From: a phage
Assembly (NCBI GenBank): GCA_012646105.1
Contig: GCA_012646105.1_4328.1
Length of the DNA stretch: 43,583 bases
Strand: one strand, 5' to 3'
Shown: positions 1-43,583 of the stretch, piece by piece
Layout of the letters: every line of letters begins with the position of its first letter
Position numbering within the stretch: position 1 is the stretch's first letter
Translations under genes and position numbers: made by a program
Notes under the pieces: model-generated
Told to the model about the DNA's origin: nothing
Seen by the model: only the letters and a program-made list of their open reading frames with translations
The model's database searches: none

Positions 1-1063
1 ACGTTGCTGCCCGCATGGTAGTAATCTTTGATTCCTGATCAGCAACAGAAATACCACGTGCCCCAGGTTCGTCATAAACAGCGTACCCAAGTACCGCAGC
101 ATGGTCGGTAGTGTTCGTAATAAATGTCGTAAGGTCTGTTGTTGCCGCCGGGCTCTCTGTACCAAGAAAAACACCTAAACCAGCTGTGTAAGCATTGTTA
201 AGTAGTTTAGCCACTGTACCTGCTGAGTCTGTAGTACCATTGTTATCAAAGTAGCAGTAGTGGTTAATCGCATTAAATCCCAGAGATTTTATGTAAAGTA
301 ACTCGGCTAAATCATAGGCTGACTCTACGTAGCATATTCTTAGTTTCTCCGATGCTGTAACCCGTACATACGATGTAGCTGGAGTCTCCCCTAGCGCGTA
401 GCGAGAGGTATTAAGAATAAAATCTCCTGCTATCTTTTGACCACTGGAGTTTAAGATCTTACTTACCCCATAAACCTTACCTTTAACCCCTATGATATCT
501 TTGCCTGTATCCAATGCTGCCTGAATGGCGTCTGACCAGTCATCGCCCACCACAAGATTCGCGTAATCTTCGATGTAAGCAAACGAATCTGAGCGAACCT
601 GCAACCCATCAACTTGCGTCTGTTTCGCGGCCCCCGCCACCAAATCAACACCTTTTCCAGGCGCCGAAGACGCCAGTTCTTCACGAAGATTAGGGTCAGT
701 CTGTGGCTTCCAGTCTGCATTGCCGACAGGGTTAAATCCGGCAGGAACCGTAACAGGCAACGTACCCGCGTATGAATACCACGTTTTACTTACGGGGTCG
801 TACACCACTTTATCGCGGTCAGTTGCTGTTAAAGTTCCGCCGGTTGAGAAATCCCATGACACTGGAGAAAAACCAGCGTCCCTCAAAACCTCGGGAAGAG
901 TTTTCTGTGTCTGCCCTGTAACCTGGTTAGTGGCGTAATCAATATCAGCACCACCGGCAACGCCGCCTTGTTTACCGGTGATAACTTCAGCTTCAAAAAT
1001 CTGGTGCTTCTTTGCGGTTTGTAAATCCGCCAGGCTTAAAACGTCACTGCATCCGCTTGACAT
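1..1063 (-). CDS. tailspike / receptor-binding protein, N-terminal 354 codons (3' end lies beyond the window start)
   Basis: ATG at 1063-1061 (MSSGCSDVLSLADLQTAKKHQIFEAEV...); hand translation shows the frame open to base 1; last position of the late operon after the central fibre; glycosidase-like stretch LGYAVYDEPG. Confidence 0.55.
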   Translation of the reverse strand, partial: MSSGCSDVLSLADLQTAKKHQIFEAEVITGKQGGVAGGADIDYATNQVTGQTQKTLPEVLRDAGFSPVSWDFSTGGTLTATDRDKVVYDPVSKTWYSYAGTLPVTVPAGFNPVGNADWKPQTDPNLREELASSAPGKGVDLVAGAAKQTQVDGLQVRSDSFAYIEDYANLVVGDDWSDAIQAALDTGKDIIGVKGKVYGVSKILNSSGQKIAGDFILNTSRYALGETPATSYVRVTASEKLRICYVESAYDLAELLYIKSLGFNAINHYCYFDNNGTTDSAGTVAKLLNNAYTAGLGVFLGTESPAATTDLTTFITNTTDHAAVLGYAVYDEPGARGISVADQESKITTMRAAT

Positions 1064-9205: not shown

Positions 9206-9397
9206 ATGACAAGCATTACTATGTTCTTCTTAATCATTATTGTTTTAGTTTATTTTATTCCGTTTCTCGTGGCGCATATGCGCAACCATAAAGCTAAATT
9301 AGCGATATTCATGGCTAATCTGTTTCTCGGTTGGGTTCTGCTGCCGTGGGTATTTATTTTAATCTGGGCGTGCAACTCGAATGTCAAAGAGAAGTGA
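9206..9397 (+). CDS. small inner-membrane protein resembling superinfection-immunity family proteins (63 aa, 2 TM)
   Basis: two hydrophobic helices; motif VAHMRNH...AIFMANLFLGWVLLPW matches my recollection of the Imm_superinfect family; opposite strand to flanking tail genes. Confidence 0.55.
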   Translation: MTSITMFFLIIIVLVYFIPFLVAHMRNHKAKLAIFMANLFLGWVLLPWVFILIWACNSNVKEK

Positions 9398-9435
9398 GCT
9401 AGTATAGGACAAATCCTAAACACGAGGAAGTAAGC

Positions 9436-10566
9436 ATGGCCCAGAAGAAAATAACCGACGAACAGTTGCAGGAAGAATTGAACGCCGGGATGAAGAATAT
9501 CGACATCGCCCGTAAATACGGCATCTCAGACCGCGTTATTCGTATTCGTAAAGCAAAACTAGCTAAGAAAGGCGTAGGCCACGGGCGTGACGTCAGTCAC
9601 CTTGTGCCAGACGGCTACAAGATTAAAGGCACGTCGTCACTGGTGGACGAGTTCGGCAACACTAAGTTGCAATGGGTTAAGACCGACACTGACGCCGAAC
9701 GTCAGGTCGAGTTGATGAAAGCCGTAATCGAGGGCATGAAGTCAGAGATTAAACCGGTTGCGCCTGTTAAAGCGGCCCGAGCCAAACGTGACGATAAACT
9801 ACTCAATCTTTACACTGTATCTGATTTCCATCTCGGTATGCTGGCCTGGGCTGACGAGAGCGGCGACGACTGGGACATGAGGATTGCGGAAGACCTGTTC
9901 TCCCTCTGGTTCGATGCGGCGTTTCAGAAAGCGCCAGATGCAGGAACAGGGGTTATTAACCTGCTGGGCGACCTTGCGCACTTCGATAGTCTGGATGCCG
10001 TTACCCCAGCGAGCGGTCATATTCTTGACGCTGACACGCGCTACCAGAAACTGGTCCGCTACATGATTCGTATGGTCCGCCGTGTTGTCGATATGGCCCT
10101 CGTTAAGCATAAAAATGTTCGCCTGCTTATCGTGCAAGGGAACCACGACGAAAGTGGAATGATTTGGTTAGCTGAGATGTTCAGTACGCTGTACGACAAT
10201 GAGCCTCGTGTGTTCGTCGATACGTCACCGGATGTTTACAAGATGGTGCAACACGGCAAAACTACGCTGTTCTTCCATCACGGGCATAAAGCACGATTCG
10301 ACGCTATTGAACCGGTTATGATTGCCAAGTTCCGCAAAGCGTTCGGCGAAAGCGAGTACAGCTACGCCCATGTAGGGCACCTGCACCATCAGAAGATTGT
10401 AGAAAGCCGTAACATGATTGTTGAACAACACCGCACATTAGCGGCAAAAGATGCCTACGCCTCCCGCGGCGGATGGATGTCGGGCCGTAGCGCAAACGTA
10501 ATTACTTATAGCGCCGAATATGGCGAGATCGCACGTTTAACGATTTCACCGGAGATGCTGGGATGA
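9436..10566 (+). CDS. N-terminal HTH fused to calcineurin-like metallophosphoesterase (376 aa)
   Basis: HTH-like segment aa 18-45; phosphoesterase motifs D130-x-H132, G178-D179, G235-N-H-D238, H281-H-G-H284, G314-H-L-H317; RBS AGGAAG upstream. Confidence 0.7.
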   Translation: MAQKKITDEQLQEELNAGMKNIDIARKYGISDRVIRIRKAKLAKKGVGHGRDVSHLVPDGYKIKGTSSLVDEFGNTKLQWVKTDTDAERQVELMKAVIEGMKSEIKPVAPVKAARAKRDDKLLNLYTVSDFHLGMLAWADESGDDWDMRIAEDLFSLWFDAAFQKAPDAGTGVINLLGDLAHFDSLDAVTPASGHILDADTRYQKLVRYMIRMVRRVVDMALVKHKNVRLLIVQGNHDESGMIWLAEMFSTLYDNEPRVFVDTSPDVYKMVQHGKTTLFFHHGHKARFDAIEPVMIAKFRKAFGESEYSYAHVGHLHHQKIVESRNMIVEQHRTLAAKDAYASRGGWMSGRSANVITYSAEYGEIARLTISPEMLG

Positions 10567-10793
10567 CTTCAAAATACAACCGCACAATGACAAACACTCA
10601 CGGAAGCACTATGACCGTAGACGTTTATGATGTGCTACGTGCCTTCGACATCCGTGACCCTGCGCTACAGCATGCATTGAAGAAACTATTGTGCATGGGC
10701 TTGCGGGGGCACAAAGACACCGGAACCGACTTAGCGGAAGCAATTGAAAGTCTGGAGAAGTTACGGGAGTACCGGAGTAACATTGATGAGTGA
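10563..10793 (+). CDS. hypothetical protein (76 aa), translationally coupled to phosphoesterase gene
   Basis: ATGA start/stop overlap with 9436..10566. Confidence 0.5.
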   Translation: MTSKYNRTMTNTHGSTMTVDVYDVLRAFDIRDPALQHALKKLLCMGLRGHKDTGTDLAEAIESLEKLREYRSNIDE

Positions 10794-10800
10794 GGCTGTA

Positions 10801-10962
10801 ATGAAAACAATATACGTAATCCGTGTATATGATGAAGAATGGGACGAGTGGGTTGATATTTATGCCGTAGGTAGTAAGGAAGAGGCCTCTAAAGAGATGG
10901 CAGAACGGAGTGACCGAGGTCAGTTAACTAACTTCTACGAAATGCCATTTAAAAGTGAGTAA
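10801..10962 (+). CDS. small acidic hypothetical protein (53 aa; alternative ATG at 10786)
   Basis: GAGG 5 nt upstream of ATG 10801; acidic stretch DEEWDEWVD; followed by terminator hairpin. Confidence 0.45.
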   Translation: MKTIYVIRVYDEEWDEWVDIYAVGSKEEASKEMAERSDRGQLTNFYEMPFKSE

Positions 10963-10965
10963 GAA

Positions 10966-10985
10966 AAGGCCCCGAAAGGGACCTT
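10966..10985. terminator. bidirectional stem-loop terminator between plus-strand cassette and major tail gene
   Basis: AAGGCCCC-GAAA-GGGACCTT hairpin (G-U wobble on minus-strand RNA) flanked by T-rich runs on both strands. Confidence 0.5.
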
Positions 10986-10989
10986 AGTT

Positions 10990-12162
10990 TTATGCGTAGG
11001 TGATACGCTGGATAACGATAGACGACTGGTACTGATTGCCTGTGGACTGCCCTTCTATACTCTGGGTTATTGATTCCGGGCCAGATATTTCTGGGGTGAC
11101 CGCCGTAAGCTCTGCGCGTTTCAGACTAAAAGACATGGCCCCATTTACCCCCGCCAGAATAGAGTTAATCTCCACCTGCTGCTCGTTGATAAACTTCTGA
11201 ATCATCACCATGTCGTACAGCTTGCCGGAGATGGAGAAGGTATTAGCCGCGCGACCACGTTCCACGAACGCAACGCTACTGTTGCCTAGTTCGAACTGAG
11301 CAGATGCGCCGTTGTCGTTGGTGATGGTCAGAGTATCGCAACGCAACGGCGTAGAACCGTCGAACACAGACACATCTACAGATGAGAACGGCTCGTCAGT
11401 GAACGTAACCCGGGAGAAGTCGGAACCTGCTGGCGGCTCGGTGAGAATTTCCTGACTCAGACCGATGAACGGGAAGCTGCCTGTCACCATCGCGTTCACG
11501 GCCTGCTCGATAGTAAAACCGGAGATTTCCACGCCTTTGGTCAACATGTACGCGCTAGGGTTCCCGCACTGTCCTTTGAACCATGTCAGGATAGAGAACG
11601 TCTTACATGCGTTACCTGTTTCCAGTTTATCCCCGGTCTTAGCCTTACTGGTTTTTGTCTCTGTCGTCAGCGTGTGCTGAATGCCAGCGCCTGTTACTAC
11701 GAGCGCCTCGACCGCGGTCACGATAAACGGTTTTGCGTTGTCGCCGGTTAAGTCGGTGAATGCAATCAGGTCGCCAACCTCTACACCGTCAGCAATGAAG
11801 CTACCGGCAGCGCGGGTGAATGTTTTACCTGCTGGAGCGACCGTAATTTCAGCACCCGTAATCTCTACCCCATCCTGCCACGTAGAAGTCATAGCACCCG
11901 CAAGGAAATCATCCTGGCTACGTGAGCTAAGTTCGATGGCGTACTCCCCGCTAACCTGTTTGTTACCGGTGCGGATGGATGTGGTTTCTCTGCTGCCGTC
12001 GAGTTCGTTGGAAGTCAGCGCATCACGGGTTACCGCGGGAACACCGCCGGTGTTACGCAACGGCGACCATACCGGGTTACTTGGTGTTACGCCCGGGGTA
12101 ACTTCCGCCACATAGAATTGCGCGGTATTCGCGCCCTTAAAAGGAGTTGTAGCCATATTCAC
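10990..12162 (-). CDS. major tail (tube) protein (390 aa)
   Basis: size, Thr/Ser/Gly-rich beta-type composition, position upstream of chaperones, terminator directly downstream. Confidence 0.6.
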   Translation of the reverse strand: MNMATTPFKGANTAQFYVAEVTPGVTPSNPVWSPLRNTGGVPAVTRDALTSNELDGSRETTSIRTGNKQVSGEYAIELSSRSQDDFLAGAMTSTWQDGVEITGAEITVAPAGKTFTRAAGSFIADGVEVGDLIAFTDLTGDNAKPFIVTAVEALVVTGAGIQHTLTTETKTSKAKTGDKLETGNACKTFSILTWFKGQCGNPSAYMLTKGVEISGFTIEQAVNAMVTGSFPFIGLSQEILTEPPAGSDFSRVTFTDEPFSSVDVSVFDGSTPLRCDTLTITNDNGASAQFELGNSSVAFVERGRAANTFSISGKLYDMVMIQKFINEQQVEINSILAGVNGAMSFSLKRAELTAVTPEISGPESITQSIEGQSTGNQYQSSIVIQRITYA

Positions 12163-12575
12163 AGCCTCTTGGTGAATGCAATAAAGTTAATTGACAACGG
12201 CCGTTTGGCCCATCCGTTTTCTACAATCAGCGGCCCCAGGCTAACCGATTGAACCTCGGCGCAGATGTCGTTACGTGAAAATGACTTACCTGCTTTAAAC
12301 GCCGTGTTAAGTAAGTCTGCCATTTTATTGATTGGCGCGCTACCTTTCACCGATGCGTAGTTAATGTCGACCTGATAAACACCTGAGCGTTGTTCTGTGA
12401 AGAACAAATCCGCCTGTTCTGTATCCGCAAGTAACATGTAACTTGCCAGATACGGCGTGTCGGTTGACGTCGGCGCGTCGATGTTTTCAAGCGAGACCTT
12501 GATGCCGTTGGTTGTTCCGAAGGCTACCAGCGGCACATCAAATGCTTTGGTTAAGTCCTCAAAGTAGCCCATCAT
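12159..12575 (-). CDS. tail terminator / tail completion protein (position-based)
   Basis: 138 aa ORF immediately upstream of major tail gene, 4 nt overlap. Confidence 0.45.
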   Translation of the reverse strand: MMGYFEDLTKAFDVPLVAFGTTNGIKVSLENIDAPTSTDTPYLASYMLLADTEQADLFFTEQRSGVYQVDINYASVKGSAPINKMADLLNTAFKAGKSFSRNDICAEVQSVSLGPLIVENGWAKRPLSINFIAFTKRL

Positions 12576-12967
12576 TTCACCTTGTTGGCTTCTTCGTTAA
12601 TGAGTTGCTGGAAGCGGGACACATTCACCCGGACAAATCCTTGTGGCGCTTGCTGCGACCAGCCATACTCCAGCCGTTGTGCATACGGCAGATTATTTGT
12701 CAGCGTGAACTCGTGCCAGTCTGCGGCTTTCAGTACGAAACTTGTAGCGTTTCCGGTTGCCGTGTTTCCTGATTTATCGGTGGCGTCCGTAATCCCGGAA
12801 GCAGAAGTACCACCAGACGCCATCCAGTTCATACGAAAGCGGCCGGTGTCCACTGGACTAGCCTTTATGATAGCGGAAAACAGCTTGATAGACACCTGAC
12901 GCATCACCTTCTCAGGATTCTTCTTCGCCTTTTCCACGAACTTAGAGACATCAAGCGCGAAACTCAT
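12572..12967 (-). CDS. neck protein, HK97 gp10-like head-tail joining family (by recollection)
   Basis: 131 aa ORF in connector block; coupled overlaps on both sides. Confidence 0.45.
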   Translation of the reverse strand: MSFALDVSKFVEKAKKNPEKVMRQVSIKLFSAIIKASPVDTGRFRMNWMASGGTSASGITDATDKSGNTATGNATSFVLKAADWHEFTLTNNLPYAQRLEYGWSQQAPQGFVRVNVSRFQQLINEEANKVK

Positions 12968-16579: not shown

Positions 16580-17283
16580 TATTTTTTCCTCAGGGCTTTA
16601 AGTTGCCGTTCAAATTCGGCAGGGTTCGATTCGTACAGAGCGATACGCTCCGCTTCACTCATGTCTTTAAACGCTGGTGCGGCCCCGCCGCCTTTGCCGC
16701 CGGAAGCCCCGCCGCCGGAAGCTGCATTTGCTTTAATCAAATGCGAAAACGCTTTGTGTTCACGCAGATATTTGCGGAACTGTTCCGGGTCAGTCGTGAT
16801 TACGTTGCCGTCTGCACCAACAAACTTAGTAACCACATCATCGCCTTCGAACTCAGTCTTAACGAACGGTGCAAGAATGTCCACTGCTTCAGGGGTGATA
16901 AAGTCGCCCGCGAAAGAGCCTAACACCGCTTTACGTTCGCTGCCGAGGATGCGCTCTGCCATTCTGGAGATGCGACCATCTTTCTCGGCTAACACCGGGT
17001 CATACTGGCTACGAATCGTCTTTTCGAACTCGTCCATCTTACCGGCGGCTTTTAACGCCTCCTGGTGTGCGCGCTGTCGTTCTTCTTCGGCCTCTTTTGC
17101 TTTACGGGCGGCTTCTTTCTTCTCCGCCAGCAATGCTTCCTGATTAGCCTTAAGCCCGGCCACTTCTTTCTCAATCAGCGCCTGAACTTCTTCAGCGGTG
17201 AACATTTTTGGCGCATCACCGCCACCAGCTTTATCTTCTGCCCCAGCTTCTTCCTGGAACGGATAACGTAAAAAACGATTCAT
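16579..17283 (-). CDS. scaffolding protein (start at ATG 17283; ORF-track start 17337 is TTG)
   Basis: charged coiled-coil-type sequence (EEVQALIEKEVAGLKANQEALLAEKKEAARKAKEAEEERQRAHQEALKAAGKMDE) directly upstream of capsid gene. Confidence 0.65.
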   Translation of the reverse strand: MNRFLRYPFQEEAGAEDKAGGGDAPKMFTAEEVQALIEKEVAGLKANQEALLAEKKEAARKAKEAEEERQRAHQEALKAAGKMDEFEKTIRSQYDPVLAEKDGRISRMAERILGSERKAVLGSFAGDFITPEAVDILAPFVKTEFEGDDVVTKFVGADGNVITTDPEQFRKYLREHKAFSHLIKANAASGGGASGGKGGGAAPAFKDMSEAERIALYESNPAEFERQLKALRKK

Positions 17284-34116: not shown

Positions 34117-34389
34117 ATGATTTACCAACTCTACCGAGCCGTAGACAGGCGGGATAGCACAGAGGCGTTATGGCTGTTGCGCGCTCCGTCCGGTGCGCAC
34201 CAGATGGAAGAGATGGCGTACTTAGGCAAAGTACCACGGCCTAAAGATATAGGCCGTCACGTGTCGCAGATTAAGCGCACGACTTTCGCCAAACCTGACT
34301 TTTATGTCTTCGAGTCGATGTATGGATGGGCGATGCATTGCCACCACCAGACACGACATTTAATTGACCAGTGGGAGAGCAGAGTATGA
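34117..34389 (+). CDS. hypothetical protein (90 aa)
   Basis: ATG 34117 with RBS GAGGG; ORF-track start 33979 overlaps upstream gene. Confidence 0.5.
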   Translation: MIYQLYRAVDRRDSTEALWLLRAPSGAHQMEEMAYLGKVPRPKDIGRHVSQIKRTTFAKPDFYVFESMYGWAMHCHHQTRHLIDQWESRV

Positions 34390-34883
34390 ATTGGCATGAA
34401 GTTTTTGACTATGACCCTGATACCGGTAAATTATTTTGGAAAATAAGTCCGTCAAAATCTGTAAAAATAGGGCAAGAAGCTGGCAGTACGAGGGAGGACA
34501 ACGACGGGAGTGAATTTAAAATACTACGTTTTAACGGGACTACTAAACTTATCCACCACGTAGTTTGGGAGATGTTTAACGGGCCGATAGCGCCGGGGGA
34601 AGTAATTCGTCATAAAAATAAAGATAGAACTGATAACAGAATAGAAAATCTTATAAAAATGCGCCGAGGTAGTATCGCACACGGCACCAACATACGGACG
34701 GACAATACTTCAGGGGTTAAAGGTGTTGGGTTTCATAAACGCTACGGTAAGTGGGTCGCGAGAATTTATGTAGACGGCAGGCCGATTTATTTAGGGGCCT
34801 ACGATAAGTTAGAGAACGCGGCTAAGGCTCGTAGGCAAGCCGAGATTAAATATGGGTTTACAGTTAACGGGGCTGAGAAATGA
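34386..34883 (+). CDS. HNH endonuclease with AP2-type DNA-binding domain (free-standing homing endonuclease)
   Basis: HHVVWEMFNGPIAPGEVIRHKNKDRTDNRIENL HNH motif; GVKGVGFHKRYGKWVARIYVDGRPIYLGAY AP2-like. Confidence 0.75.
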   Translation: MNWHEVFDYDPDTGKLFWKISPSKSVKIGQEAGSTREDNDGSEFKILRFNGTTKLIHHVVWEMFNGPIAPGEVIRHKNKDRTDNRIENLIKMRRGSIAHGTNIRTDNTSGVKGVGFHKRYGKWVARIYVDGRPIYLGAYDKLENAAKARRQAEIKYGFTVNGAEK

Positions 34884-40081: not shown

Positions 40082-40915
40082 ATGAGTAAATTTGATGTGA
40101 TTATTGGTGACTGTAGGCGCACCGTACGCGGCATCGCAGCTAATAGCGTTGATACCATCATAACTAGCCCACCGTATTTCAATCTAAGAGACTATGGCAA
40201 CGACTTACAGATAGGTAGGGAAAAACAATTAGATGACTATATAGCATCGCTGGTATCAGTATTCAACCGTGCTAAACGCGCGCTTAAGCCAGACGGAACA
40301 TTATGGATTAACATCGGCGACTCTTACGGGAAAGGAAAACAACTGTTAGGTGTACCGTGGAAACTTGCGTTTGCGCTTCAGGATGCTGGATGGATTCTAC
40401 GCCAGGACATAATCTGGAGTAAGCCAAACCCTATGCCGGAAAGCGTTAAAGACCGATGCACACGAGCGCATGAATACATATTTCTTTTTAGTAAATCAGA
40501 GAAATATTATTTCGACTATAACGCGATAAAAGAGCCAGCCGTTAGTGCGCCACGTAAGCGAGAGAAGAACAACGGCGAAAGTGCGGTAGATACTAAGTTA
40601 CGAGGCAACAGTGGTTGTTGTGGTGTTACTAGCGAATTTCGTAATAAACGCGATGTATGGAGCGTTTCTACCAAATCATATCCTGGTGCGCATTTCGCTA
40701 CATTTCCGCCAGATTTGATAATTCCGTGCGTTCTGGCTGGAAGTAGAGAAAGCGGCGTAGTTCTTGATGTTTTTGGCGGTTCGGGTACAACGGCGGGAGT
40801 GGCCAATGCATTAGGACGAGACGCGATCATTTGCGAACTAAACGAAGATTACGCCGCGCTGATACCAGATAGAGTGGAAAGCATAATCGCTAAATACGGG
40901 AGTAGAAATGTCTAA
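40082..40915 (+). CDS. DNA methyltransferase, beta-class amino-MTase (N6-adenine or N4-cytosine)
   Basis: motif IV SPPY near N-terminus before motif I FGGSGTT; no cognate endonuclease found. Confidence 0.8.
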   Translation: MSKFDVIIGDCRRTVRGIAANSVDTIITSPPYFNLRDYGNDLQIGREKQLDDYIASLVSVFNRAKRALKPDGTLWINIGDSYGKGKQLLGVPWKLAFALQDAGWILRQDIIWSKPNPMPESVKDRCTRAHEYIFLFSKSEKYYFDYNAIKEPAVSAPRKREKNNGESAVDTKLRGNSGCCGVTSEFRNKRDVWSVSTKSYPGAHFATFPPDLIIPCVLAGSRESGVVLDVFGGSGTTAGVANALGRDAIICELNEDYAALIPDRVESIIAKYGSRNV

Positions 40916-42332
40916 GTTTCAAAGGCGCGAGTACCAGAAGCTAATGACTTCGTTCATGTTGCAGCACCATCGCTGCAACATATGGGCAAGCATGGGTGCC
41001 GGGAAGACTGGCAGCGTACTGTGGGCTTTAAACCGCTTGTTCCGCAACGGTCAGCTTACGGAAGAGGACCGCGTGTTAATCCTCGCCCCGTTACGCGTTG
41101 CATCGGGTACATGGCCCGCAGAACAAGAGAAATGGAACTTCCCGTGTCTGCGTGTCGTAGACGCGACCGGTTCAGAGAAGCGCCGCATCGCGGCGCTGGA
41201 GTCGGACGCTAACGTGGTATGCACCAACTACGAAGTTATCGAGTGGCTGATTGACTACTACGGCAAAGACGACTGGCCTTTTACGGTTATCGTTGCCGAT
41301 GAGAGCACGAAGCTGAAATCTTTCCGTAGCCGTTCAGGGGGCAGCAAGCGGGCAAAGGCGCTTAGTAAAGTGGCATTCGGTAAGGTTAAGCGTTTCATCA
41401 ACCTTACCGGTACGCCATCACCAAATGGCCTCAAAGACCTGTGGGGCCAGAACTGGTTTATCGACGCTGGCGAGCGCCTCGGTTCTTCATACACGGCATT
41501 CACCGACCGATGGTTTAACTCTGTCCAGAAAGGTAAGTCGGCGATGGCGCGAGAGTATCATGCGCGCCCGGGGGCGGATAATGAGATTCACCAGAAGATG
41601 AAGGACATTAGTCTCACGATTGACGCTGCCGAGTGGTTTGGCTGCGAAGCGCCGATTATTGTACCGGTTGAAATCGACCTGCCGAAGAAAGCGCGTCAGG
41701 CGTACATCGATATGGAGGAGAAGTTATTCGCGGAACTGGAGAGCGGAGAAGTTGAAGCTGCTAACGCCGCGGCGAAGACATCTAAGTGTCTGCAGATTGC
41801 ATCCGGTGCCGTATATGTGTCGGGGCCAGATGGTGAAGCAACGAAAGACTGGGAGAAAGTGCACGACACGAAACTGGATGCGCTGGAGTCGATTGTTGAG
41901 GAGTTACAGGGTGCGCCGCTGCTTGTGGCCTATCAGTTTAAGCACGAACTGGAGCGCATCCTTAAGCGATTCCCGCAGGCTCAGGCGTTTGCCAAAGGCG
42001 CTAAGGGTAATAAGCAGATGGAAGCGTGGAACCGAGGTGAGATACCTATGCTCTTGATACACCCAGCCTCAGCAGGCCACGGACTGTCGCTACAACACGG
42101 CGGGCACCACATGGCCTTTATGAGCCAGGGGTGGAACCTGGAACATTATCTGCAGGTTATCGAGCGTATAGGCCCAGTAAGGCAGATGCAATCCGGATAC
42201 AAACGGTCTGTATTCATTTATCAAATAATAGCACGAGATACTCTTGATGAAGTTGTCGCCTCTCGTACAGACGAGAAAAGGTCTGTGCAGGATGAACTAC
42301 TTAATTATATGAAGCGCAGAGGTAAGAAATGA
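40908..42332 (+). CDS. SNF2/DEAD-like superfamily 2 helicase (474 aa)
   Basis: Walker A ASMGAGKT, DEST box VADESTKLK, C-terminal helicase domain; overlaps MTase by 8 nt. Confidence 0.7.
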   Translation: MSKFQRREYQKLMTSFMLQHHRCNIWASMGAGKTGSVLWALNRLFRNGQLTEEDRVLILAPLRVASGTWPAEQEKWNFPCLRVVDATGSEKRRIAALESDANVVCTNYEVIEWLIDYYGKDDWPFTVIVADESTKLKSFRSRSGGSKRAKALSKVAFGKVKRFINLTGTPSPNGLKDLWGQNWFIDAGERLGSSYTAFTDRWFNSVQKGKSAMAREYHARPGADNEIHQKMKDISLTIDAAEWFGCEAPIIVPVEIDLPKKARQAYIDMEEKLFAELESGEVEAANAAAKTSKCLQIASGAVYVSGPDGEATKDWEKVHDTKLDALESIVEELQGAPLLVAYQFKHELERILKRFPQAQAFAKGAKGNKQMEAWNRGEIPMLLIHPASAGHGLSLQHGGHHMAFMSQGWNLEHYLQVIERIGPVRQMQSGYKRSVFIYQIIARDTLDEVVASRTDEKRSVQDELLNYMKRRGKK

Positions 42333-42514
42333 AACTTAATGTTGGCGATGAAATATACAGCGTTCACTCATTCAATACTTTCACCGTCGAGTACATATCA
42401 AAAGACGGCAACAGCTTCGTTTTGGTAAGCTCAGATGGTAGATATGAAAAGTCATGGTGCTACACGCTACCAGATATAAAGCGCAGTTTTAAGAAAAGCG
42501 AAGGTAAGAAATGA
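42329..42514 (+). CDS. hypothetical protein (61 aa)
   Basis: six-frame ORF, ATGA coupling. Confidence 0.45.
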   Translation: MKLNVGDEIYSVHSFNTFTVEYISKDGNSFVLVSSDGRYEKSWCYTLPDIKRSFKKSEGKK

Positions 42515-42645
42515 ACATCATAGCCCCAATTCCAGCATTGCAAAAACGTATCAAGGAACTCGAAGAGGAGGTTCTACGACTACGGCAGAAAAGAGACGCC
42601 GCTAATGCGCAACTGGCGTTTGTACTGGAGAAGTTATCAGAATAG
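42511..42645 (+). CDS. small coiled-coil protein (44 aa)
   Basis: hand translated (MNIIAPIPALQKRIKELEEEVLRLRQ...); ATGA coupling. Confidence 0.4.
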   Translation: MNIIAPIPALQKRIKELEEEVLRLRQKRDAANAQLAFVLEKLSE

Positions 42646-42652
42646 TAGAGAA

Positions 42653-42672
42653 AAGGCCCCATTCGGGGCCTT
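42653..42672. terminator. bidirectional rho-independent terminator
   Basis: AAGGCCCC-ATTC-GGGGCCTT perfect 8 bp stem, T-run after, A-run before. Confidence 0.65.
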
Positions 42673-42676
42673 ATTC

Positions 42677-43583
42677 TTACCAGTCAGTGTAAACGATTAA
42701 TCCACGCATTAAGTTTCTATATATTGTTGTGGTGCTGGAAGGAAAGTTGAATTGTATTGTAGACATTTTACCTTTTACAGGTGATGCAATAGCACTCTTC
42801 ATCCCAAACTTAAATGGCGCTGCCGAAGTGATAGCGGTATAAGTTACGTCCTCTCCGAAGTATCCATCCTCTGTAGCCCCCATTAAGACTGCACCATTTA
42901 TAGATGCACCACCATTCAGTGCGATCATCTGAACCCAAGCGCTAAAGCCTTTCCTATACCTGATAGTGGTAGCAAAAGCTGACGATGCACCTTTGAATGC
43001 AATACCAGACACTTTTACATCGGTTTGCGTGGTTGTATGGTCACTATTGGCAGAAGCCGTAATTATACGGGTAGGCCATGCATTATTGGTAATCAAACCA
43101 TCGCTACTATTTGGGTCTTTAGGCATAGCCTTTTGGAGTAAACCACCTAAACTCCAATGAGTTCCTGATGTACGCCCACCTCCAAATAGATAAGCCTCAG
43201 TAACGAGGGGTTTAACATAGGTTTTCGCAGCGAGTCCTTGTACCAGTTCCCTAAACCTTTGTGTATCTCGTATTCTTGCTGTGATCCCAGCATCACCGAC
43301 ACCATCCCATACAAAAGCACCAAATTCACCATTGCCGGCTTGTCCGAAGATATCACCAGCTTTTTGCATCTGCTCTACGGTGCCAAAGTTTGCACCTGAA
43401 AAGGCTGCTACTACAGGGATAACACGCGTAGTATTAAGCATCTGCATTAAGCCGCCATAGTCTAAGCGCATATGAATCAAGTCCTCTTCTACTGCCTCGT
43501 CAGTAGTAACACCATCCCGTGCTAATGAGTATGAGTTACACAGGACTATGTCATATTTGGTTGAGTAGCACTGTTCGAATGGA
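42677..43583 (-). CDS. 5'-truncated ORF (at least 302 codons), possible C-terminal part of tailspike or other tail protein
   Basis: frame open to the window end with no stop; ORF-track start 43480 is only the first TTG; ends at bidirectional terminator. Confidence 0.45.
   Translation of the reverse strand, partial: PFEQCYSTKYDIVLCNSYSLARDGVTTDEAVEEDLIHMRLDYGGLMQMLNTTRVIPVVAAFSGANFGTVEQMQKAGDIFGQAGNGEFGAFVWDGVGDAGITARIRDTQRFRELVQGLAAKTYVKPLVTEAYLFGGGRTSGTHWSLGGLLQKAMPKDPNSSDGLITNNAWPTRIITASANSDHTTTQTDVKVSGIAFKGASSAFATTIRYRKGFSAWVQMIALNGGASINGAVLMGATEDGYFGEDVTYTAITSAAPFKFGMKSAIASPVKGKMSTIQFNFPSSTTTIYRNLMRGLIVYTDW

Follow-up and report, generated by a model that had tools for sequence, protein, structure and literature searches.

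Gene content at the two ends of the window

The window, by which we mean the whole 43,583-nucleotide stretch of phage DNA that was analysed, opens and closes within minus-strand coding sequence (Table 1). At the right edge, a mechanical listing of open reading frames gives 42677..43480 on the minus strand, and translation of 42677-43582 on that strand yields 301 residues and a stop codon, with no in-frame stop upstream, so that the frame is open to the window's end. At the left edge, translation of 1-1063 on the minus strand yields 354 codons from the ATG at 1063, again with no stop and with one base over; a Shine-Dalgarno sequence, AAGAGGA, lies ahead of this ATG at about 1071-1077. When the window is joined directly, 43583 to 1, six-frame translation leaves the two edge frames offset by one nucleotide. 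The preliminary description of this DNA had already noted both a right-hand frame open to base 43583 and a one-nucleotide mismatch across the join, and the minus-strand and six-frame translations bear it out on both points.

Over more than 90% of a 24-kb query, the window shares about 90% identity with Kagunavirus genomes of 42-45 kb in INPHARED, and since its size and content match those of these genomes, it can be taken as one genome unit. In the relatives, the gene order runs from the tail protein through the tailspike to a convergent helicase region. The edge frames occupy the same slot as Kagunavirus tailspikes: directly downstream of the gene for the distal tail (J-like) protein, the last gene of the late operon, and convergent with the helicase region. 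The stop of the tail protein gene lies 12 nt ahead of the tailspike start. Alternative start codons account for window ORFs of 876 aa (TTG) and 470 aa where the gene calls give 851 and 463 aa.

Four bases past the tailspike stop begins a GC-rich hairpin, toward which a convergent plus-strand ORF of 44 aa, ending at 42645, is also directed. The hairpin folds on both strands with a U-rich tail, at -23.4 and -20.7 kcal/mol (z about -5; none of 200 shuffled sequences folds as well), and it is likely a bidirectional intrinsic terminator, although a simple consensus terminator scan made no call at 42653-42672. The earlier proposal of a bidirectional terminator at the end of the right-edge ORF is thus a reasonable one, supported by folding on both strands and passed over in silence by the consensus scan.

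Conservation among related phages brackets the locus from both sides. In a megablast search, 116 phage records match the left edge of the window only at 669-1100, with 80-86% identity, a stretch that comprises the tailspike N-terminus and the end of the tail protein gene. At the other edge, 42600-42680 (extending to 42693, and thus comprising the terminator region and the last tailspike codons) is 90-95% identical across 77 records of related phages, where it lies directly downstream of tailspike genes that differ from one another. In every one of the relatives, the left and right conserved stretches flank a single tailspike gene of about 2 kb. The same type of search with 41500-43583 found no match in complete E. 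coli genomes and, among plasmids (PLSDB), only a partial match at 84%. The opening 40 nt of the window had no exact match among the contigs of IMG/VR, the JGI metagenomes or the GTDB genomes.

Table 1. Features at and around the divided tailspike gene, in window coordinates
Feature	Position	Strand	Remarks
Tailspike, 5' part	1..1063	-	ATG at 1063; codons 1-354 and first base of codon 355 (window base 1)
Tailspike, 3' part	42677..43583	-	last base of codon 369, codons 370-670, stop TAA at 42677-42679
N-terminal anchor (particle-binding), residues ~1-135 (to 150)	659..1063	-	conserved in Kagunavirus
Barrel, first half, residues 242-354 (β1-β4, helix α4)	2..340	-	predicted; includes D331-E332-P333
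Barrel, second half, residues 370-504 (β6-β8)	43178..43582	-	predicted; base 43583 is the third base of codon 369
C-terminal β-sandwich, residues 537-668, CBM-like	42686..43081	-	predicted; model secondary structure all-β; Foldseek
GC-rich hairpin, AAGGCCCC-ATTC-GGGGCCTT	42653..42672	both	42653-42660 pairs with 42665-42672; likely terminator
Distal tail protein (tip attachment, J-like), 851 aa	1076..3631	-	gene calls of the identical contig (L007 13795-16350); annotation of relatives

Several other features of the genome deserve mention in their own right. Between the tailspike and the SNF2 helicase genes, two relatives (L003 at 12176-12661 and L006 at 10512-10997) carry a gene for a 161-aa HNH endonuclease (PF13392), and the window has in that place, at 42329-42645 on the plus strand, two small ORFs of 61 and 44 aa. 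A motif of about 29 nt (...AGGTAAGAAATGAA) is repeated at the start regions of these two ORFs, at 42305-42333 and 42487-42515. A further endonuclease gene, of the HNH/AP2-domain type, lies at 34371-34883 on the plus strand (L007 3479-3976), just upstream of a PD-(D/E)XK nuclease gene. Homing-endonuclease content varies among near-identical genomes, because the HNH genes of L003 and L008 differ or sit elsewhere. At 40082-42332 on the plus strand, the gene for an N6/N4 DNA methyltransferase (277 aa) runs 8 nt into the SNF2-family helicase gene (474 aa); three Logan contigs that derive from different sequencing runs share this helicase at 100% protein identity. Within the tail-gene block, three opposite-strand ORFs at 9206-10793 (plus strand), also present in relatives, form a moron-like island that is flanked by the genes for the tail assembly chaperones and for the tail tube. 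They encode a superinfection-immunity-like protein of 63 aa (PF14373), a protein of 376 aa without an assigned family and a protein of 76 aa.

The two edge frames are parts of one tailspike gene

When the two partial proteins were concatenated and used as a tblastn query, single-piece matches ran across the junction in Escherichia virus TH27 (55% identity, query 7-490) and in Dickeya phage Monomax (42% identity, query 1-490), and in these alignments the two halves abut with a hole of 14-15 residues. From a large protein collection came three proteins of 670 aa, at 96, 91 and 91% identity and 100% query coverage, each 15 residues longer than the sum of the 354 and 301 residues that the window encodes. 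The same relation holds at the level of DNA: the left half aligns ungapped to nt 1-1063 of a 2013-nt gene in the relative L003 (98.7% identity), and the right half aligns ungapped to nt 1107-2013 (98.9%), leaving 43 nt between the halves unaccounted for. Besides the identical Logan contig described below, four relatives from different samples have the uninterrupted 2013-nt gene, and the 43 nt are carried without an indel in all 5 of these loci.

Both edge ORFs belong to one tailspike of 670 residues, of which the left supplies residues 1-354 and the right residues 370-670. The preliminary description had suggested that the right-edge ORF might be the C-terminal part of the gene starting at 1063 and had proposed aligning both partial proteins to those of relatives; in that alignment, the halves fall without overlap on adjacent parts of the same proteins, and not on different proteins, the finding that was to have counted against the suggestion.

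An identical closed assembly supplies the missing 43 nucleotides

The SNF2 helicase protein of the window led to a Logan contig, SRR10990360_67 (L007), of 43,656 nt, which was rebuilt in full from five overlapping fetches with no conflicts. Its ends carry an exact terminal repeat of 30 nt, which corresponds to the k-1 overlap left by a circular path at k=31, and the contig closes into a circle of 43,626 nt. Rotated to base 1 of the window, this circle is the window at 43,583 of 43,583 bases, with zero differences. The remainder of the circle consists of 43 nt between window positions 43583 and 1, CCTCCACCGGGAGGGATTTGGCCTACCATAATAAGGCTTTTGG in the plus orientation (L007 12677-12719). In the contig, the tailspike ORF reads through from the N-terminal part in the window (354 aa) by way of SKSLIMVGQIPPGGG to the C-terminal part (301 aa), for a total of 670 aa; the missing nucleotides encode residues 355-369, which are predicted to form strand β5 of the barrel described below. 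Since 43 is 3 x 14 + 1, the direct join is one base out of frame.

The preliminary description had marked circularity and terminal redundancy for checking. The independent identical assembly is circular, and the unit that it closes exceeds the window by just 43 nt, rather than extending well beyond both edges. The window itself has no terminal direct repeat of 5-399 nt, and the 43 nt do not occur anywhere in it, even when as many as 3 mismatches are allowed. Junction repeats, terminal redundancy or a displaced copy of the 43 nt, as causes of a misassembly, were looked for in the window, and none was found. We are very confident that the two edges belong to one gene in one genome unit, with an artefactual gap of 43 nt. 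The window is accordingly a complete genome unit of a Kagunavirus-like (K1G-like siphovirus) E. coli phage, less 43 nt.

Origin of the gap

We infer that the gap is an artefact of the assembly or of the record, in which a circular assembly would have been linearised inside the tailspike gene, losing 43 nt there. A more particular version of this account arises from the comparison with relatives. Only six of the 2013 positions of the tailspike gene distinguish the present genome from all four close relatives, and one of the six, at nt 1085 (GAC to GGC, D362G; L007 12698), is the exact midpoint of the gap at nt 1064-1106, with 21 nt missing on each side. Residue 362 is Asp in 80% of 85 homologs and Gly in the present genome, and lies at the C-terminal end of the predicted barrel strand β5. 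Under this version, the assembler would have broken the circle at the variant site and trimmed a k-mer overlap of about 21 nt off each end. We consider a break of the assembly graph at the polymorphic site to be as good an explanation as all others taken together, and not better, since the placement of the SNP at the centre of the gap is one coincidence, roughly 6 in 2013 by chance, that was noticed post hoc. Moreover, a standard de Bruijn unitig ends beside a SNP, and not 21 nt away from it, so that an extra trimming step has to be assumed.

Other accounts of the open ends fare worse. The window might be an excerpt whose source record holds the 43 nt (for example, a permuted contig of 43,626 nt or longer) and whose ends were cut or trimmed. 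This reading, another of those put forward in the preliminary description, agrees with a window that falls 43 nt short of the circular unit, but an excerpt would have to cover one genome unit exactly, start and stop within a single gene and lack a terminal repeat, and a symmetric loss of 21 nt on each side of a genome-specific SNP resembles the behaviour of an assembler and not arbitrary excerpting. We hold it to be improbable, and even if it were true, the conclusion of one gene in one genome unit would be unchanged. The preliminary description had also allowed for two different genes, the left one a tailspike and the right one a late gene, unrelated to it, that stops at the terminator. The frame mismatch at the direct join is the sole support for such a pair. 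Against it stand the single-piece tblastn matches across the junction, the full-length 670-aa homologs at 91-96% identity, the uninterrupted gene in a sequence-identical genome and a predicted barrel that requires strands from both halves; the first three of these refute it, and its probability is negligible. Of the three causes originally named for the mismatch, then, missing sequence is the one that stood, in that exactly 43 nt restore the frame, and separate genes fell, in that the halves match the same protein.

Two further possibilities would make the gap real. In one of them, the phage truly has a 43-nt deletion and frameshift, and hence a defective tailspike, and it is by chance that the opening of the record falls at this deletion. 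The absence of the 43 nt from the window, even at up to 3 mismatches, is what such a deletion would give, but the arbitrary opening point would have to match both boundaries of the deletion to the base, the gene is intact in an assembly that agrees with the window at all other bases, and the loss would remove barrel strand β5 and shift the frame of 301 residues of the adsorption protein. We consider this very unlikely. We attach just as little weight to the idea that the window ends are the physical termini of virion DNA (cos or fixed-end) inside the tailspike gene. Beyond the linearity of the window, nothing speaks for this idea; the independent assembly is circular and opened elsewhere, at window position 16888, and five relatives are contiguous across the junction. 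Fixed ends with 43 nt unrepresented would also leave the gene unexpressible after injection unless the DNA were terminally redundant, and the window shows no terminal redundancy.

Domain architecture of the tailspike

The N-terminus is that of a Kagunavirus tailspike. PHROG tail-spike families match residues 1-147, and the anchor profile matches the N-terminal domains of solved tailspikes such as CBA120 TSP3 and TSP4, at E values of 1e-11 to 1e-14. In the tailspikes of other Kagunaviruses, including the endosialidases of K1G and K1H, the proteins of K1ind1-3 annotated as "63D sialidase", and those of Golestan and fFiEco03, which sit in the same slot with a shared terminator, the same anchor is found, with a nucleotide identity of about 80-86% in the first ~400 nt and a protein identity of 73-92% in the first 22-33%. 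From about residue 150 on, these proteins are unrelated to the present one, carrying β-propeller endosialidase, β-helix/pectate-lyase, SGNH esterase or GDPD modules; a set of proteins in our collection (P0092-P0120) likewise shares only the first 22-33% of the query, with SGNH, pectate-lyase or β-helix modules downstream instead. The label "tailspike" that the preliminary description had attached to the locus is borne out by this genus-wide anchor homology together with the position in the genome.

Beyond the anchor, sequence searches are of limited help. Pfam and PHROG gave no family over the barrel, Pfam contributing only a sub-threshold match to Tail_spike_N, and a phmmer search against PDB sequences found no match for the tailspike, the ~520 receptor-binding residues being without a sequence relative there. 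Structure prediction is more informative. An AlphaFold2 monomer model was made of P0001, the homolog that is 96% identical, with 85 homologs; it has a mean pLDDT of 89.3 and comprises a small β domain, a (β/α)8 barrel (about 242-504) and a C-terminal β-sandwich (537-668). Foldseek returned CBA120 TSP4 for the N-terminus, GH5 and GH113 for the barrel, and CBM4-2 and the mannanase 1wky (a catalytic domain with a CBM) for the C-terminal domain. The prediction thus assigns the receptor-binding module, with high confidence, a (β/α)8 glycosidase barrel, and it is this barrel with its β-sandwich that sets the present tailspike apart from its Kagunavirus relatives.

In the arrangement that we propose, the N-terminal ~135 residues would dock the tailspike to the tail tip, as in other Kagunaviruses, and the remainder would be a horizontally exchanged receptor-binding cassette made up of the small β domain, a clan-GH-A-like barrel and the β-sandwich. 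The cassette would bind and cleave a host surface polysaccharide, O-antigen or capsule, and so bring the virion to the outer membrane. That the tailspike is a glycan-cleaving depolymerase is, from homology and the predicted fold, probable.

Candidate active-site residues

Six residues (D251, D331, E332, Q343, D380 and Y387) are invariant in 85 homologs, and four more (H268, Y269, W461 and D462) nearly so. In the hydrolases of clan GH-A, the acid/base Glu lies in an N-E-P motif at the end of β4 and the nucleophile Glu at the end of β7. The predicted model has the (β/α)8 barrel fold of the clan, and E332 lies at the end of predicted β4, in a Y-D-E-P motif, which makes it the probable general acid/base. 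In contrast to the clan members compared (GH5 mannanases and cellulases, GH2 β-glucuronidases, GH42 and GH164), in which an Asn precedes the acid/base Glu, the residue before E332 is an invariant Asp. There is also no conserved carboxylate at the position of the nucleophile. Predicted β7 reads RVIPVV(A/S)AF, with Ala or Ser where the nucleophile Glu would be; at positions 428-436, save A429 and F430, no residue exceeds 36%, and no conserved acidic residue was found at or after the predicted end of β7 in the 85 homologs. Sequence similarity to the clan is below significance: an alignment to a GH2 β-glucuronidase profile is weak (E about 0.08-0.09) and not significant alone, although it sets H-Y against H-Y, D-E-P against the N-E-P of the GH2 acid/base, and N-S-Y against the β6 Tyr motif. 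On the model, then, the barrel resembles a clan-GH-A glycosidase in fold and acid/base and fails one defining feature of the clan. A GEFG motif was considered as a GH5-type nucleophile and set aside, its Glu, E455, being at the start of β8 and not conserved.

Enzymes of the GH20 and GH18 types use substrate-assisted cleavage at N-acetylhexosamine. By analogy, the invariant Asp-Glu pair D331-E332 suggests, as a hypothesis only, substrate-assisted catalysis on N-acetylhexosamine; D462, on β8, would hypothetically serve as an alternative second carboxylate. Any specific catalytic mechanism is, at this stage, doubtful. A bolder pair of propositions, which we think unlikely, is that the protein is a nucleophile-less GH-A-like barrel with substrate-assisted cleavage by D331-E332, and that the gap marks a real D362/G362 polymorphism in the population. 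If the former were true, the barrel would represent an uncatalogued glycoside-hydrolase family, spread as a receptor-binding cassette and spanning siphoviruses, podoviruses, myoviruses and prophages of Escherichia, Enterobacter, Dickeya and Acinetobacter; if the latter were true, a variant in tailspike activity or host range, at the mouth of the barrel, would be segregating in the sequenced stock.

Relatives of the barrel in other phages

The cassette also occurs in other phage lineages. TH27 (Drexlerviridae, Nouzillyvirus), Monomax (Autographiviridae), P22-like prophages of E. coli and the tail fibres of Enterobacter prophages have the same barrel-plus-β-sandwich cassette at 42-76% identity, and share with the present tailspike a C-terminus of the form ...RGL(I/L)V(x)(T/S)DW. 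The anchors ahead of it are those of each lineage: TH27 has a Drexlerviridae anchor, Monomax and the Enterobacter prophage "tail fibres" have T7-like adaptors, and the P22-like prophages (P0008, 76% identity) have the PF09008 head-binding anchor. The exchange of receptor-binding cassettes across phage families has been described in general terms (PMC10408124), and by its sequence distribution, the barrel cassette behind different lineage anchors is a classical case of it; recombination probably had its borders in the two conserved stretches, the anchor on the 5' side and the terminator region on the 3' side.

The prophages offer some leads of their own. In an E. coli contig (L014, PQIM01000057.1, 3001-6914), a P22-like prophage tailspike with the same barrel cassette, at 76% identity, adjoins a gene for a 636-aa acyltransferase-3/SGNH protein, probably an O-antigen acetylase. 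The P22-like type of barrel cassette was found in only one complete E. coli genome, that of CUPF06 from pig faeces (NZ_CP182174.1, 1408986-1410286), and the O-serogroup of this strain would predict the receptor of the cassette.

More distant is a group of Acinetobacter phages, vB_AbaP_46-62_Aci07, Bestia, APK26 (gp48) and AB3P2, whose spikes are homologous over 80-98% of the receptor-binding part (tblastn E values of 2e-44 to 2e-9, 22-29% identity, 80-98% coverage). The best viral match in BFVD is the capsular depolymerase of Aci07 (E 2e-46, TMq 0.69 over 571 columns), followed by a "lyase" of E. coli phage PE3-1 (TMq 0.58); both are distantly homologous in sequence as well. The tailspikes of Aci07, Bestia, AB3P2 and APK26 have been reported to contain TIM-barrel domains and linked to depolymerase activity (PMC11823257), and the activity of the APK26 protein on the K26 capsule is noted as established in a further report (PMC11126041). 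The Acinetobacter spikes differ from the present tailspike in their podovirus and myovirus anchors and in hosts that are defined by Acinetobacter capsule type. Hence, the present fold is unusual for a tailspike but not new, because the TIM-barrel spikes of Acinetobacter phages have already been described (PMC11823257).

Implications for annotation and for the Kagunavirus tailspike

The explanation that emerges is a mundane one: the split is a commonplace artefact of the record, and the tailspike that it affects is somewhat unusual in its predicted TIM barrel. An annotation should join the edge fragments into a single tailspike of 670 residues and describe the record as a genome of 43,626 bp, circularly permuted, in which 43 nt are missing. 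If the fragments are left apart, the only host-recognition protein of this phage would either seem to be absent or appear as two ORFs, truncated or frameshifted.

The gain for biology is modest. On the predicted fold, the present gene would be a new Kagunavirus member of a known and uncommon class of TIM-barrel tailspike depolymerases, with which a Kagunavirus of E. coli would join the small set of phages that have a TIM-barrel glycosidase as tailspike, and not the usual β-helix. The occurrence of the same cassette on at least 4 types of anchor would be useful for the swapping of receptor-binding proteins and for the prediction of host serotypes.
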